A stretch of 57,938 nucleotides of DNA, taken from Acidimicrobiia bacterium. GTDB lineage: Bacteria; Actinomycetota; Acidimicrobiia; Acidimicrobiales; SZUA-35. Below are positions 38,136 to 55,289 of this stretch, piece by piece. The translations under genes and the position numbers were made by a program. The notes under the pieces were generated by a model, which worked only from the letters and a program-made list of their open reading frames with translations, did no database searches and was not told the DNA's origin. Position 1 is the stretch's first letter. Every line of letters begins with the position of its first letter. The stretch covers positions 1-57,938 of the forward strand of contig QIKW01000043.1 of NCBI GenBank assembly GCA_003231975.1. Direction: 5' to 3'.

Positions 38136-38567
38136 CTAGGCCGATTGGGCTTCAAGCACACCGACGAGGCGATCTACGAAATCACTGGCGCCTGCGTCCA
38201 GTTCGCCCCGCTTGATGGCCATGCCGCCAATCATGTTGCCGCCGCGGCGCTCGACAATGGCACTGAGCTTGTCGAGGGTTTTGCCGCTCTCGATTGCGTA
38301 GGTGCAATAGACGGCAGCCGTTTTTCCGTCGATGGCCGGAAGCTCGATTAGGCGGCGAACCCCGGCGGGCTTCTGACCGAACAGGAACAGCCCGTCGACC
38401 CAGGACCCAACAATCACAAGTTCGGCCTCGGACAGTTGCTGAAGGTCGATCTGTCTGATGGAACAGGCAATCGTTGGAATCCCAGACCGGCTCAGTTCGG
38501 CCGCGATCTTCTCGCCAGCCTTTCTGGTGTTGCCCGTGAGTGACTCATAGATGACGATGCCCTTCAT
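38136..38567 (-). CDS. flavodoxin-like protein
   Basis: MKGIVIYESLTGNTRKAGEKIA is the flavodoxin FMN-phosphate loop. ATG 38567. Confidence 0.8.
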   Translation of the reverse strand: MKGIVIYESLTGNTRKAGEKIAAELSRSGIPTIACSIRQIDLQQLSEAELVIVGSWVDGLFLFGQKPAGVRRLIELPAIDGKTAAVYCTYAIESGKTLDKLSAIVERRGGNMIGGMAIKRGELDAGASDFVDRLVGVLEAQSA

Positions 38568-38601
38568 GGACCGCGATGTTAGCCCGGTTAGGATGCGTCT
38601 C

Positions 38602-38877
38602 ATGTCTGACCAGCGGTACAAAGTCTCCATCACATACTGCGTGCCCTGAAACTATTCGGCCCGCACCGTGAGTGCGATTACTGATTTACTTGGCAACTAC
38701 CAGCACCTGATCGATGAGCTGTCGATCGTGATGGGCTCAAAGGGTGTGTTCGACTTTTCGGTCAACGGCCGTTTGCTCTACTCAAAGGATCAAACTGGCC
38801 GCCATGCAGAAGACGGCGAACTGCTTGGCTTGTTCAGAGACTTGGTTGGCCCCGACGTTGCGCTCTACGGCACCTGA
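38602..38877 (+). CDS. SelW/Rdx-family redox protein with in-frame UGA (putative selenocysteine) in a CVPU motif
   Basis: ATG 38602 has AGGA 8 nt upstream. Translation is MSDQRYKVSITYCVP-TGA(38647-38649)-NYSARTVSAITDLL...GSKGVFDFSVNGRLLYSKDQTGRHAEDGELLGLFRDLVG, which follows the Rdx CxxC/CxxU pattern. The ORF track shows only the post-TGA part. Confidence 0.7.
38656..38684 (+). promoter_or_regulatory. candidate bacterial SECIS hairpin downstream of the UGA
   Basis: Upper stem CGCAC (38662-66) / GUGCG (38672-76), apical loop CGUGA. Lower stem UCGG (38656-59) / CUGA (38681-84). The loop begins 18 nt after the UGA. Confidence 0.45.
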
Positions 38878-38882
38878 GGCAA

Positions 38883-39713
38883 GTGATCGAAGGTTCCATC
38901 AGGGTTGACGATCCCGACGACCCCCGAATCGACGTGTTCCAAGGCCTTCGAGACCACGTGCTGCGCCGGGAACGCGAGCTGCCGAACGGAGACATGGGCG
39001 GGGTTTTCATTTCCGAGGGTGACAACGTGGTCCAGCGAGCCATGGCTGCGGGCTACCAATTGGAGTCAATCTTGGTTGATGGCAAACGCTCAAAGCCGTT
39101 GCCTGGGGTGGTTCCAACGGACGTTCCCGTCTACGCGGCTGGGCCCGCGGTGTTGGTGCAGATCACCGGCTACCACCTGCACCGAGGCGCGCTCGCCTGC
39201 TTTCGCCGGAGACCGCTCGCAACCGTCCGGGAAGTTTTGGCAACTCCTAAGTTACGCACCATTGCGGTCTTGGAGGCCATAAACAACCCAACCAACATGG
39301 GAGTGATCCTGCGTTGCGCCGCTGGGCTAGGGGTCGACGCTTTCCTCTTGGACCCCACCTGTTGTGACCCGCTCTACCGCCGCTGCGGCCGGGTTTCCAT
39401 GGGCGAGGCCTACGCACTCCCCTACGCCCGACTCGACGAGTTCCCCGCTGGTCTCAACGTCCTCAGAGAGCAAGGGTTCTGCTTGCTGGCCCTTACCCCA
39501 GGGCAGGATTCCATCGCTCTCGAACAGCTCAGCTTCGGTCAGAAGGATCGACTGGCCATCTTCCTCGGGGCCGAGGGCCCTGGTTTGAGCGGCGGCGTGT
39601 TGGAGTCCGTTGATCATTGCGTTCGAATCCCCATGTCGGGAACTGTCGACTCCATCAACGTTGGCTCGGCTGCTGCTGTTGCCTTCTATGGCTTGCAGCT
39701 TGCCAGGCGCTGA
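38883..39713 (+). CDS. TrmH/SpoU-family RNA 2'-O-methyltransferase
   Basis: AINNPTNMGVILRCAAGLG, AIFLGAEGPGLS and IPMSGTVDSINVGSAAAVAFY motifs. GTG start. Confidence 0.88.
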   Translation: MIEGSIRVDDPDDPRIDVFQGLRDHVLRRERELPNGDMGGVFISEGDNVVQRAMAAGYQLESILVDGKRSKPLPGVVPTDVPVYAAGPAVLVQITGYHLHRGALACFRRRPLATVREVLATPKLRTIAVLEAINNPTNMGVILRCAAGLGVDAFLLDPTCCDPLYRRCGRVSMGEAYALPYARLDEFPAGLNVLREQGFCLLALTPGQDSIALEQLSFGQKDRLAIFLGAEGPGLSGGVLESVDHCVRIPMSGTVDSINVGSAAAVAFYGLQLARR

Positions 39714-40421
39714 TCCATCTCTCGGAACTGATCTGGCGGCCCGAACCAGAGACCCCAGCGCAGCGTGAGCCTCGCTCGCCTCGTTCAGTCGTTCTGAAAA
39801 TGGCACTCTGGAGGCACGGGCGCCCGCCGGTTCATCAACCATCAGCGTCAGGCCGTAGCGGTCGATAGCCATCACTTCGGCCGACTCGGCCAGCCACCGA
39901 CCGCCAAGCGTGCGGGCTATCAGCAGCAGGTTTTCGTCGAGCCGCTCAGCCACCTGAGCCAAGAATTCGTGGCCGTGATCAACCAGCGGGTCTGGTTGCG
40001 CACCCGCAACGTCGGCTGGCCGCAGCCAGCGTTCGTCGCCCAAATCGTCCAGCCACCGAATGCGACTGGCAACCAGTCGAAACCAAGACCAGTCAAGAGA
40101 TTCAACCTGCGCTCGCAAATGCGGATGGTGGATCAAAAGAGGCTCGGTCAGCTCAAATTGCTGAATCCCAGGGACACTTCTGAGATCTCCCTGAATCAGA
40201 AGGCGATCACCAATCGACATTGCTGCCCGCTGATCCTGCCTTCCCCTGCTGGTGTGGGTTGACAGATTGGATAGCACAGTGACCGGTGTTCCCGAAAGGT
40301 CGGCAATCATCGGCACGGTGCCGACCACTGGCCTGCCGTCGGTGTCTACTGTCGCCAGGCTGGCCGTTCGGTTGGCAGCCAAGGTTGTGCGGGCGCGTTC
40401 GGCCCAAGTGGGTTCCAGCAC
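39327..40421 (-). CDS. HugZ-like PPOX-fold plus DUF2470 protein with an unusual ~130-aa C-terminal read-through
   Basis: ARTTLAANRTASLATVDTDGRPV (split-barrel) and LLLIARTLGG...AIDRYGLTLMV (DUF2470-like). There is no stop until 39327, so the tail is antisense to the methyltransferase gene. The start is uncertain (GTG 40421). Confidence 0.6.
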   Translation of the reverse strand: MLEPTWAERARTTLAANRTASLATVDTDGRPVVGTVPMIADLSGTPVTVLSNLSTHTSRGRQDQRAAMSIGDRLLIQGDLRSVPGIQQFELTEPLLIHHPHLRAQVESLDWSWFRLVASRIRWLDDLGDERWLRPADVAGAQPDPLVDHGHEFLAQVAERLDENLLLIARTLGGRWLAESAEVMAIDRYGLTLMVDEPAGARASRVPFSERLNEASEAHAALGSLVRAARSVPRDGSAPGKLQAIEGNSSSRANVDGVDSSRHGDSNAMINGLQHAAAQTRALGPEEDGQSILLTEAELFESDGILPWGKGQQAEPLLSEDVETSGELVESGVGECVGLAHGNPAAAAVERVTTGGVQEESVDP

Positions 40422-40497
40422 CCATTCAACGTCGGCATTTCCGAGCCCACCCTTGAGCCAACAAAGAACGGTGTCCAGCCGAGTCTTTGTCTGATCT

Positions 40498-41679
40498 CTA
40501 GCTGGCCGGTTCGGCGGGCAGCAACTGGGTTGAGAATGCAAACGACGGCAGGCTGATGGGAGGAATCTCGTACTCCCACAACACCTCGCCCTGCTCGTCG
40601 ATCAGCTGAAAGCGAACCACGTCGAGGCCGCCAGGAATGCTGAAGCCGAACAGTCGGTTGGCCCGACTGGTTGGCGTTCGCACGACTGGAAGCTCAGCCG
40701 AGATTGCTCTTTCGCCGTCTGCGACCTTCACAGAGCGGCTGGAGAGTACTCGCACAGCCCAAACGCCTTCGGGGGCAACGCCAGCAACCACAAGGTCAAG
40801 ACCGTCAACAGCAAGCTGAACTTCGGGTACAGTCACCGGCTGCGTCGGGCTTCTTCCGGTTGTTCTTGGCTGGCCCTTTACAACCAGCACCTCGGCCGCG
40901 TCGAGGGTCCACGTAGTGCCGTTTCCGGTAGGCCCGGATACTAGGATTTCGGCGCTAGGGGTCCATGCTCGCGTGCCCGATGAGTTAGGCAGTGCCGCCG
41001 GGATGCTGTTGACCGTTTCGAAGCTCAGCCCGGAGACCAGCGCCGCTGTTTCCTCGCTGTCGGCGGGAAACACCCGCGCGGTAACCAGGGCTTGTTCGGT
41101 CTCAATCCAGGAAACACCCAACGCCGAGGTTTCGCCTTGGTAGCCGCGAACTGTGATGGGCTGCCCCGTCCCTGGGAGTTCCACATCAGTTCCCGATCTG
41201 TCAGATTCTAGAATTGCCGTACCCGAGACTGCGAGATACGCCTCCAGTCCATCGTCGCGTCTGAGGTTGAGCGACTGGAAATAGGGCACGCCGGTGCCGC
41301 CCTGCGAGCGCCAGAACGGTGCTCCGCTAGCGATCACATGCTCGATCTGCCAACCACCCGGCAAGTTGTCGATGTCAACAATGAGAAACCTGAACCCATC
41401 AGCCCTGGATTCAGGCGGCAAGCTTAGGTTCGGATCAACCAGGGGGCTGAGGTCAACGGTGAGACGGCCATCGTTGCTAACCGACCAATATTCTGACTCA
41501 CTCACCGACGTTGGGCCGGGGTCCGGGGCTGGTTGGGGCCTGGCCAGCCAATCGCTCACACCGATCGCGACCAGCAGCGCCAAAACCCCAACTGACGGAA
41601 TCAGCCATGCCAGGCGTGATTTGGCGCCAAGCTTCACAACTCGGGTTCGGCTCTCGCTGGGTCGGCTGGTCTGGTCCAT
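40498..41679 (-). CDS. hypothetical membrane-anchored exported protein
   Basis: ATG 41679. One N-terminal TM (LAWLIPSVGVLALLVAIGV) followed by ~340 aa with no motif I recognise. Confidence 0.55.
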   Translation of the reverse strand: MDQTSRPSESRTRVVKLGAKSRLAWLIPSVGVLALLVAIGVSDWLARPQPAPDPGPTSVSESEYWSVSNDGRLTVDLSPLVDPNLSLPPESRADGFRFLIVDIDNLPGGWQIEHVIASGAPFWRSQGGTGVPYFQSLNLRRDDGLEAYLAVSGTAILESDRSGTDVELPGTGQPITVRGYQGETSALGVSWIETEQALVTARVFPADSEETAALVSGLSFETVNSIPAALPNSSGTRAWTPSAEILVSGPTGNGTTWTLDAAEVLVVKGQPRTTGRSPTQPVTVPEVQLAVDGLDLVVAGVAPEGVWAVRVLSSRSVKVADGERAISAELPVVRTPTSRANRLFGFSIPGGLDVVRFQLIDEQGEVLWEYEIPPISLPSFAFSTQLLPAEPAS

Positions 41680-52982: not shown

Positions 52983-55289
52983 ATGCCAGTTCCCTTTTTA
53001 CGCCACGCGTGTCAGAATTGGTCGGTGCCTGCGAAGCTCGACAACGCCAACACCGAAACTGCCTTCCGTACCTGTCCCCTGTGCGAGGCTGGCTGCGGGC
53101 TGGAACTGACTCTTGATGCGTCGCGCAGCAAAGTTGTTCGCACTAGAGGAGATCAAGAAGACGTGTTCTCGGCCGGGTTCTTGTGCCCAAAGGGCACAAC
53201 TCTTGGCCACCTTCACGAAGATCCAGACTGGCTGCGGGGCCCCATGCTGAAGGTTGACGGCGAGTTCCGCGAGGCAACCTGGGACGAAGCGTTTGGGTAC
53301 ATCAACGATCGGATGCCGCCGCTGGTAGAGAGCAACGGCCCAGACTGCGTTGCGGTTTACATGGGAAATCCCAGCGCTCACTCACTGGCCCCAATGTTTC
53401 TGAACCGGACGTTGCTGAAGGCGGTTGGAACGAAGAACCGCTTTTCGGCATCAACGGTAGACCAGAGGCCGAAGGAAATATCGGCCGCGTTGATGTTCGG
53501 GTCGGTTGCGGTTCCGGTGCCAGACCTCAACCGCACCGACTACATCCTGATGCTTGGTGCCAATCCGTACGCGTCAAACGGATCGCTGTGCACGGCCCCC
53601 GACTTCCCTGGACGGCTGGAACGAATCCAGGAACGCGGCGGCAAGGTCGTTGTTGTCGACCCTCGCCTCAGCGAGACGGCCAAAAAGGCCGACCAACACC
53701 TGGCTATCCGCCCCGGCACCGACGCCCACCTACTGGCAGCCATTGCCTCCACGCTGCTGGCCGAAGGCCTGGCCGATCCCTCCAACGTGGCCGACCACTG
53801 CGCCGGGCTTGAGGAGCTTCCCGCTCTGCTTGGCCCATTCACAGCCCAGAGTGTTGCCAAGGTTGTTGGGATTCCTGCTGAGTTGATCAGACAGGTGGCC
53901 CGAGACTTGGCCGCGGCCCCAACCGCCTGTGTTTATGGCCGCATTGGTACCTGCACTCAAGAGTTCGGAACGCTGGCTTCCTGGCTGGTTGATGTGGTCA
54001 ACATCCTCTCTGGCAACCTCGACAAAGAGGGCGGCGCCATGTTTGCGAAAGGGGCAACGGGTCAGCCGTCAACGAAGGGCAAGCCAGGCAGTGGTCGCGG
54101 TTTCACGATGGGGCGAGCCAATTCGCGGGTAAGCGGTTTGCCAGAGGCGTTTGGAGAGTTCCCGGTAACTGCTCTTCCCGAGGAGATCGAAGCCCAGGGT
54201 GAGGGCCAGGTTCGTGCCCTCATCACAGTTGCGGGAAATCCGGTCAGCTCAAATCCGAACAGCCTTCGCCTTGACGCTGCCTTGGCTTCGCTTGACTTCA
54301 TGGTTTCGATAGATCCCTACATCAACGAGACCACCCGCCACGCCGACGTGATCCTGCCTCCTCCCAGCCCCCTTCAGAAGAGCCACTACGACCTGGCCCT
54401 CCTGAACTTCGCGGTTCACAACGTTGCCAACTACTCGCCTCCGGTGCTTGGGTTAGAGCCGGATCAGCTGAGCGAGGGAACGATCATGCTGAGACTCGCT
54501 AGCATATTCCTTGGAGCGGGCCCAGATTCAGACACCGCAGCCACTGACGATGCAATCGCAGCGATGATGCTTGGCTCAGCCGTTCAGAACCCAACAGCCA
54601 ACGTGGCAGGCCGAGACGTCGAGGAGCTGCTTGAACTTCTGAGGCCCAGCACCGGCGTCGAGCGACTGCTCGACATCCTGCTTCGCACCGGTCCCTACGG
54701 CGACGGCTTCGGATCGAATCCCGAAGGTCTCAGCCTGGCCGTTCTAGAAGCCAACCCCCACGGTGTAGACCTCGGCCCGCTTCTCCCAGGCCGGATTCCT
54801 GATCTGCTACGCACCCCAAGCGGCAAAATCGAGATCGCACCCGAACTGATAGCAAAGGACGTTGAGCGCTTGGCCAAGTCTTTGGCCCGAGATCCCGAAG
54901 AGTCTCTGGTTCTGATTGGCCGCCGACACATCCGCTCGAACAACTCCTGGATGCACAACCTCCGGGTGCTGACAAAGGGCCGGAACCGCTGCACCCTTCA
55001 GATCCACCCAACCGACGCAAAACACGCCGGGCTGACCGATGGGAAAATGGCAACCGTTACCTCCCGGGTGGGCTCTGTTTCGTTGGACGTTGAGGTGACA
55101 GAGGGGATCAGACCAGGGGTTGTCAGCATTCCGCACGGCTTTGGCCAGAACATGGAAGGCGTCCGACTCCGAATTGCGTCTGACTACAAGGGCGTCAACA
55201 CCAACGTTCTCACCGATGAGTACCTGAGAGACGAGCTGAGTGGGAACATCGCTCTCAACGGTGTTCCTGTTTCTGTTTCCGCTGGTTAG
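52983..55289 (+). CDS. molybdopterin-dependent oxidoreductase (formate-dehydrogenase-like family, Cys-type)
   Basis: N-terminal 4Fe-4S motif RTCPLCEAGCGL...FLCPKG, molybdopterin-binding body, and a C-terminal beta-barrel (ATVTSRVGSVSLDVEV). The start could be GTG 53025. Confidence 0.88.
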   Translation: MPVPFLRHACQNWSVPAKLDNANTETAFRTCPLCEAGCGLELTLDASRSKVVRTRGDQEDVFSAGFLCPKGTTLGHLHEDPDWLRGPMLKVDGEFREATWDEAFGYINDRMPPLVESNGPDCVAVYMGNPSAHSLAPMFLNRTLLKAVGTKNRFSASTVDQRPKEISAALMFGSVAVPVPDLNRTDYILMLGANPYASNGSLCTAPDFPGRLERIQERGGKVVVVDPRLSETAKKADQHLAIRPGTDAHLLAAIASTLLAEGLADPSNVADHCAGLEELPALLGPFTAQSVAKVVGIPAELIRQVARDLAAAPTACVYGRIGTCTQEFGTLASWLVDVVNILSGNLDKEGGAMFAKGATGQPSTKGKPGSGRGFTMGRANSRVSGLPEAFGEFPVTALPEEIEAQGEGQVRALITVAGNPVSSNPNSLRLDAALASLDFMVSIDPYINETTRHADVILPPPSPLQKSHYDLALLNFAVHNVANYSPPVLGLEPDQLSEGTIMLRLASIFLGAGPDSDTAATDDAIAAMMLGSAVQNPTANVAGRDVEELLELLRPSTGVERLLDILLRTGPYGDGFGSNPEGLSLAVLEANPHGVDLGPLLPGRIPDLLRTPSGKIEIAPELIAKDVERLAKSLARDPEESLVLIGRRHIRSNNSWMHNLRVLTKGRNRCTLQIHPTDAKHAGLTDGKMATVTSRVGSVSLDVEVTEGIRPGVVSIPHGFGQNMEGVRLRIASDYKGVNTNVLTDEYLRDELSGNIALNGVPVSVSAG

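Follow-up and report, generated by a model that had tools for sequence, protein, structure and literature searches.

SelW-like proteins are the most abundant family of prokaryotic selenoproteins in the Sargasso Sea, where 48 Sec and 7 Cys forms were counted (PMC1088965), and in the GOS data, where SelW-like proteins with a CxxU motif again rank first among prokaryotic selenoprotein families, the corresponding numbers are 427 and 56 (PMC2398784). The gene described here occupies positions 38602-38877 on the forward strand of the window, that is, of the whole 57,938-bp contig (58 kb) that was analysed. It resembles these metagenomic bacterial sequences in its domain, in a CxxU motif with the putative Sec as second residue, in its length of about 90 residues, in a SECIS-like hairpin directly past the UGA and in the marked excess of Sec over Cys forms among its relatives. 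Unlike the metagenomic SelW-like proteins at large, it belongs to a subclade made up mainly of Acidimicrobiales, with some Chloroflexota, whose signature is a nearly invariant YCVPU(N/D)Y together with YQH...GSKGVFDV...GRHAEPGEVL. No paper was found that names this Acidimicrobiales/Chloroflexota lineage as a user of the SelW-like family; very little literature was found on Sec use in Acidimicrobiales and Chloroflexota, and essentially none on Sec in Acidimicrobiales, Microthrix or Ilumatobacter beyond a preprint on Actinomarina.

The closest proteins of known structure are Rdx proteins solved by structural genomics, namely Atu0228 (2fa8), SAV_2001 (3dex), the VC SelW-related protein (2p0g) and entries 2obk, 2oka and 2ojl, none of which has an assigned function. 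They have the fold and the motif position expected for the window protein; however, they carry Cys (CTQC) where the window has the putative Sec, and their sequence identity to it is only 21-26%. Mammalian selenoprotein W (2npb) and its Cys-containing relative MIEN1 (2ljk) share the same thioredoxin-like Rdx fold, with CxxU or CxxC at the junction between β1 and α1.

As for the RNA element that directs Sec insertion, the minimal SECIS of Escherichia coli fdhF starts 11 nt past the UGA, with G23 and U24 in its loop. [quoted passage not shown] The SECIS-like element of the window lies within the coding sequence, just past the UGA, and not in a 3' UTR as in eukaryotes.

Reading frame, protein family and fold

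At this place the ORF list shows only a 69-aa ORF that starts with GTG (38668-38877). An ATG at 38602-38604 lies in the same frame, with a single in-frame TGA (38647-38649) between it and the end of the gene, and a putative Shine-Dalgarno-like AGGA (38590-38593), read from the sequence, ends 8 nt before it. The joined translation of 38602-38877, which comprises 91 codons and a terminal stop that is also TGA (38875-38877), reads MSDQRYKVSITYCVP before the internal TGA and NYSARTVSAITDLLGNYQHLIDELSIVMGSKGVFDFSVNGRLLYSKDQTGRHAEDGELLGLFRDLVGPDVALYGT after it; with U written at the UGA, the 91-aa product begins MSDQRYKV, continues through ITYCVPUNYSAR and ends in ALYGT. A preliminary description of this DNA had given the same ATG, AGGA spacing, TGA and 69-aa ORF, all of them with exact coordinates, and the joined product that it quoted is identical to our retranslation. 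Another in-frame ATG is found at 38593, within the sequence AGGATG; ATG 38602 is favoured because the homologous proteins begin 12-15 codons 5' of the TGA, and most related loci have an ATG at that distance from it.

Profile searches with the 91-aa product, run with U written as C, assign it to the Rdx family. Pfam Rdx (PF10262) is matched with E=1.7e-13 and 51 bits (cut-off 22.6), the match extending from position 1 to position 73 of the 74 in the profile, and NCBIfam TIGR02174 (CXXU_selWTH) is passed with 38.9 bits against a curated cut-off of 34.2, while the narrower equivalog NF041051 (SelTWH_Campy) gives 61.8 against a threshold of 88 and is thus below cut-off. A phmmer search of PDB sequences returns seven Rdx-family structures with E≤0.0014 (2fa8, 2ojl, 3dex, 2ljk, 2p0g, 2obk and 2oka), to six of which (2fa8, 2ojl, 3dex, 2p0g, 2obk and 2oka) residues 2-88 of the product align. 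In the printed alignments ITYCVP[UGA]NY stands over IRYCTQCNW of 2fa8, IEYCTQCRW of 3dex and VEYCEPCGF of 2ljk, with the UGA column corresponding to the second Cys of the CxxC of the solved Rdx structures; the putative redox motif of the window, Cys13-Val-Pro-Sec16 (TGC GTG CCC TGA, 38638-38649), is in this way aligned with their CTQC and CEPC.

The fold was examined on the AlphaFold model of P0003, a full-length homologue 62% identical to the product, rather than on the window protein itself. The model has a mean pLDDT of 92.7 and the order β1-α1-β2-β3-β4-α2, with the redox motif located between β1 (residues 5-12) and α1 (residues 17-35). The 21 PDB entries that match it best are without exception bacterial SelW-related proteins, with TM-scores of 0.74-0.87, the range that also holds for the structural-genomics proteins introduced above; the mammalian protein is more distant, mouse SelW (2npb) having a TM-score of only 0.68 to the same model. 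On the strength of this homologue, the window product has a predicted thioredoxin-like Rdx fold, with its active site, Cys13-Val-Pro-Sec16, where strand 1 meets helix 1. The preliminary description had placed the product in the Rdx/SelW family and had located the stop exactly at the second redox Cys/Sec position: the first claim is borne out by the two profiles above their cut-offs and by the fitting fold of the homologue model, and the second by the solved Rdx structures and by an orthologue with TGT at this codon (locus L007, see below). An alignment with Rdx-family proteins, which it had proposed as a check, likewise makes the UGA column the Cys/Sec column.

Conservation of the UGA and of the codons before it

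A protein search retrieves 233 database relatives, nearly all of which are 62-74 aa long and begin just past the position of the UGA. Three entries, P0003, P0005 and P0007, are full-length and read YCVPWNY, with W at the Sec position. The W of P0003 stems from the gene caller's choice of genetic code, because the DNA of its locus (L003) carries TGA and has no translation corresponding to the query under table 11; where callers use codes that read TGA as sense, they recover the full 90-92-aa protein. The W of P0005 and P0007 probably has the same cause, by analogy with P0003.

These three W-containing entries are what speaks for UGA being a sense codon throughout the genes of the organism (table 4 or 25), but they reflect the code chosen by the caller over DNA that has TGA, as at L003. 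Moreover, TGA is the commonest stop codon of the window, where it ends 12 of the 20 Pfam-supported genes, the Rdx gene included, at a G+C content of about 61%. TGA is hence a normal stop in the window and the code is therefore not reassigned; a general sense UGA is exceedingly improbable. Two scans of all in-frame TGAs of the window by coding potential yielded the Rdx gene and ordinary gene ends, with no other redox motif and no second selenoprotein candidate. The window also contains, at 52983-55289 on the forward strand, a gene without an in-frame TGA for a molybdopterin oxidoreductase of 768 aa, which combines Fe4S4, Molybdopterin and Molydop_binding domains.

Scanning one genome per species detects an Rdx relative in at least 494 species. 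The best 80 of these are mostly MAGs of Acidimicrobiales (Microthrix, Ilumatobacteraceae, MedAcidi-G2B), with a minority from Chloroflexota and one from Euzebya, and in all but one of these 80 the TGA is present. Counted over 86 related loci, the window among them, the critical codon is TGA in 85 and TGT (Cys) in one, locus L007 of a Ca. Microthrix sp. Read from the sequences, the TGT of L007 and the TGA of the other loci constitute what looks like a classical Sec/Cys pair.

The codons that precede the UGA are those of a translated protein. In 80 distinct sequences, the first and second positions of the YCVP codons (-4 to -1) are invariant or nearly so, and the entropy at the third positions is 0.54-1.85 bits; V and P are each retained in 79 of the 80. 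As YCVP varies at third codon positions, the piece upstream of the UGA is translated and under selection as protein, and the combination of TGA at 85 of 86 loci with a conserved upstream frame means that the pattern is not due to chance.

This bears on two other accounts of the locus. According to the first, the gene is a pseudogene, a CxxC Rdx gene that lost its second Cys codon to a nonsense mutation; TGA is a single-base change away from TGT or TGC, and one orthologue does have TGT. Against it stand the presence of TGA at nearly all loci and in two phyla, without other lesions and with strong purifying selection on both sides of the codon, and protein identities of 54-72% rule out one recently spread dead allele; a pseudogene thus has next to no probability. 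The preliminary description had considered a nonsense mutation less likely than Sec recoding, a judgement that the distribution of TGA over two phyla and the purifying selection upstream of it uphold, and it had envisaged relatives that carry TGC or TGT beside a copy with further disabling lesions; TGT occurs at one locus of 86 and other lesions are absent.

According to the second account, the true product is the 69-aa protein initiated at GTG 38668, the upstream 15 codons being a leader or untranslated. Gene callers report this form at the window locus as well as for almost every one of the 233 database relatives, but it would dispense with strand β1 and with the entire CxxU motif, and it disregards the protein-coding substitution pattern of the upstream codons in the 80 distinct sequences as well as the complete protein that callers recover under TGA-sense codes. 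GTG 38668 itself is a Val codon located in the loop of the conserved hairpin described below and has no ribosome-binding site of its own. Initiation there as the source of the true product is accordingly rated highly improbable, and the reading with a start at ATG 38602 and passage through the UGA is retained.

Hairpin downstream of the UGA

Immediately 3' of the UGA, a hairpin with the stem arms CGCAC (38662-38666) and GUGCG (38672-38676) and the loop CGUGA occupies positions 38662-38676, or +16 to +30 counted from the U of the UGA. It was recognized by single-sequence folding, by covariation and by a recoding test, and is a feature that the preliminary description had not mentioned. The stem of the window begins 12 nt past the UGA and that of the family 11 nt past it, since C15 and A31 are unpaired in the window; the upper part of the hairpin measures about 17 nt, and the loop places a G-U at +22/+23. 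GTG 38668, the apparent start of the 69-aa ORF, sits within this loop, and the restart of gene callers at the loop GUG explains the systematic truncation of the family's database entries.

Covariation was evaluated on an ungapped alignment of 79 distinct sequences in which column 1 is the U of the UGA. The helix formed by columns 15-20 and 26-31 is paired in 90.5% of cells, with double-sided changes in 28 cells compared with 9.9±2.4 in shuffled alignments, none of 500 shuffles reaching the observed value. Five of the six stem pairs show changes on both sides, at least five of the six are maintained in 73 of the 79 sequences in a common register, and RNAalifold recovers the same hairpin core; when the 3' arm is slid as a control, pairing drops to 14-66%. 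Compensation is apparent in individual codons: an Ala-to-Thr change in the 5' arm (GCC to ACC) is always accompanied by a synonymous Ser change in the 3' arm (AGC to AGU), as found in the window and in L020, L025, L031, L048 and L051, and the Arg codon CGU is paired with ACG in L043, L054, L061, L072 and L073. In the loop, G22 and U23 are at least 90% conserved over the 79 sequences. Third-position entropy is lowered to 0.23-0.61 bits at hairpin codons +6, +7 and +9.

The hairpin is not accounted for by the peptide alone. When the window peptide was recoded synonymously 3000 times with the codon usage of the window, 0.43% of the recodings kept five of five pairs. Folding energy is uninformative here, with z=-0.04 against shuffles for a 64-nt fold of the window and z=-0.95 in a second test; the stem in the window measures just 5 bp, and the support for it comes from comparison and from synonymous recoding, not from energy. 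A lower stem, in which UCGG (38656-38659) pairs with CUGA (38681-38684), appears in the minimum-energy fold of the window (38656-38684) and would enclose the upper hairpin; its columns (10-13 and 35-38) are paired in 65.8% of cells across the family, which is compatible with a possible, weak and optional extension.

Locus L007 (CAYFOV010000016.1), which has TGT at 2980-2982, keeps a full hairpin (CCGCGC-CGUGA-GCGCGG). This weighs against the recoding reading, as the conserved peptide R-A-V-S-A hence also accounts for a part of the hairpin sequence. TGA is found in the Microthrix MAGs L012, L022 and L041, and this suggests, as far as the sequences go, that L007 underwent a recent conversion from Sec to Cys.

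A separate, shifted SECIS in the Chloroflexota was considered and set aside: for about a dozen of these sequences RNAfold favours a hairpin displaced by 4 nt in the 3' direction, but most of them also fit the common register.

The hairpin is comparable to the fdhF SECIS in being a stem-loop 11-12 nt past the UGA, with an upper part of about 17 nt and a loop G-U (+22/+23 here), and it differs from it in sequence, in its 5-nt loop CGUGA, in the absence of a bulged U and in an upper stem of only 5-6 bp. With its small, G-containing apical loop just 3' of the UGA, it fits the description of bacterial SECIS elements (PMC1088965), and we infer that 38662-38676 is a putative bacterial SECIS, for which binding of the cognate SelB is predicted.

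Neighbouring genes and decoding of the UGA

The Rdx gene is flanked on the left by a minus-strand gene listed as a 165-aa ORF (38136-38633) that overlaps the Rdx start. This ORF likely begins instead at ATG 38567, with the N-terminus MKGIVIYESLTGNT, and would encode a divergent flavodoxin-like protein of 143 aa (38136-38567; Pfam Flavodoxin_3, 7.2e-8). Such a start leaves a divergent gap of 34 nt (38568-38601) to the Rdx gene, comparable with the 32 nt found at L001, and with so short a distance between the divergent starts both promoters must lie inside the neighbouring coding sequence; a promoter and terminator scan of 38300-39000 gave nothing useful, the sigma-70 consensus detecting no promoter-like site. 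On the other side, a SpoU-family RNA methyltransferase gene (38883-39713, forward strand; Pfam SpoU_methylase, 5.1e-30) begins only 6 nt beyond the stop codon of Rdx, and the two may be co-transcribed.

The order of the genes matches that of Acidimicrobiales MAGs. The shared series comprises genes for an M18 peptidase, H+-PPase, a Zn-peptidase, a hexapeptide transferase, an IndA-like protein, a fatty acid desaturase and the flavodoxin-like protein, followed by Rdx, and continues with SpoU, PNPOx/DUF2470, an aldose epimerase and TrkA/TrkH. Of 85 related loci, 24 have the SpoU gene behind Rdx in the same orientation, and 22, close relatives only, have the flavodoxin-like gene in front of Rdx in the opposite orientation. 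The latter was considered as a conserved partner and, all 22 loci being from close relatives, was treated as synteny by descent. As the neighbourhood is conserved among close relatives only, it provides no firm functional link, and a connection between the flavodoxin-like protein and Rdx is speculative.

In Chloroflexota loci, a conserved pair of tRNA-Ala genes (GGC and CGC) is found upstream on the opposite strand instead of the flavodoxin-like gene (L037 2394-2840, L046 2246-2805, L048 2371-2801, L049 1578-1946 and L053 845-1204); L060 has tRNA-Ala CGC only (1886-1959). Complete Acidimicrobiales chromosomes, namely OZ245048.1 (its locus being L001/L010), OZ243946.1 and CAWDLV010000001.1, carry the TGA form and are syntenic with the window. 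The SpoU ORF and a minus-strand PNPOx_N/DUF2470 ORF (39327-40541) overlap convergently over 387 nt (39327-39713), where a 140-aa C-terminal tail of the latter, without a Pfam domain, lies antisense to the SpoU domain. The same layout recurs at L001 (10345-11103), where SpoU was missed by the gene caller and is detected by tblastn with 69% identity; it is either a truly long antisense overlap or the shadow of a run-on ORF.

The internal UGA and its hairpin can be set against the Sec-insertion genes detectable nearby. No tRNA (ARAGORN) and no Rfam match was found in the 58-kb window, and Pfam searches of its ORFs of at least 200 aa, save those shadowed by a larger ORF of the other strand, revealed no SelA, SelB or SelD. 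With SelA, SelB and SelD of E. coli as queries, tblastn gave no match in the window and the 85 related loci (552 kb, of which 494 kb lie outside the window), and ARAGORN found no tRNA-Sec in 60 related loci; as these searches cover one contig fragment of the genome, the absence says little about the genome as a whole.

From 38602 to 38877, the window very probably contains a SelW-like selenoprotein gene whose UGA at 38647 is recoded as Sec, a reading that draws on the directly observed reading frame, family, UGA conservation, translated upstream piece and conserved hairpin. The UGA might otherwise be translated as another residue, be it Cys, through a re-purposed Sec-like tRNA and SelB, or Trp or Cys, if the hairpin stimulated read-through by a near-cognate tRNA. 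In 2016, Mukai and colleagues reportedly described natural systems of Sec-to-Cys recoding. Such decoding would agree with the lack of Sec machinery in the window and the related loci searched, and the comparative data speak of a decoded UGA and a conserved hairpin rather than of which residue is inserted. However, the UGA falls on the residue that is classically Sec or Cys in this family, of which Sec forms are amply documented (PMC1088965, PMC2398784), TGT or TGC would be the simpler way to encode Cys and yet 85 of 86 loci retain TGA, and in the Actinomarinales, another order of the same class (Acidimicrobiia), the canonical selA, selB, selC and selD are present in all 84 complete genomes (bioRxiv 10.64898/2026.04.03.716425). 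Translation of the UGA as a residue other than Sec is thus judged very unlikely.

Under the preferred reading, in which the UGA encodes Sec, insertion would depend on SelB. The hairpin at 38662-38676 would act as the SECIS and hold the complex of SelB, GTP and Sec-tRNA(Sec) at the ribosome as it reaches UGA-16; Sec would then be inserted at codon 16 and translation would proceed to the UGA at 38875, which is expected to terminate, as no such element lies at the right distance from it. The product is predicted to be a small thiol-dependent oxidoreductase, which most likely would cycle between a selenolate/thiol form and a Cys13-Sec16 selenenylsulfide. To our knowledge, no physiological substrate has been established for any bacterial SelW-like protein, and we know of no partner of any of them. 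A small chance is left for a less conventional system, with the UGA and hairpin decoded outside the canonical Sec pathway (for example by a Cys-charged Sec-like tRNA) or with a dedicated redox relay between the selenoprotein and the flavodoxin-like protein.

Taken as a selenoprotein gene, the window gene is an ordinary SelW-like (Rdx) representative of a well-known family; it reveals no new mechanism. What it calls for is a correction of annotation, as more than 200 family entries among the database relatives are 62-74-aa fragments devoid of the active site, some of which already carry the name 'selenoprotein W-related protein' given by JGI to truncated homologues. For the organisms concerned, the sequences suggest that the use of Sec is widespread in Acidimicrobiales and in part of the Chloroflexota.
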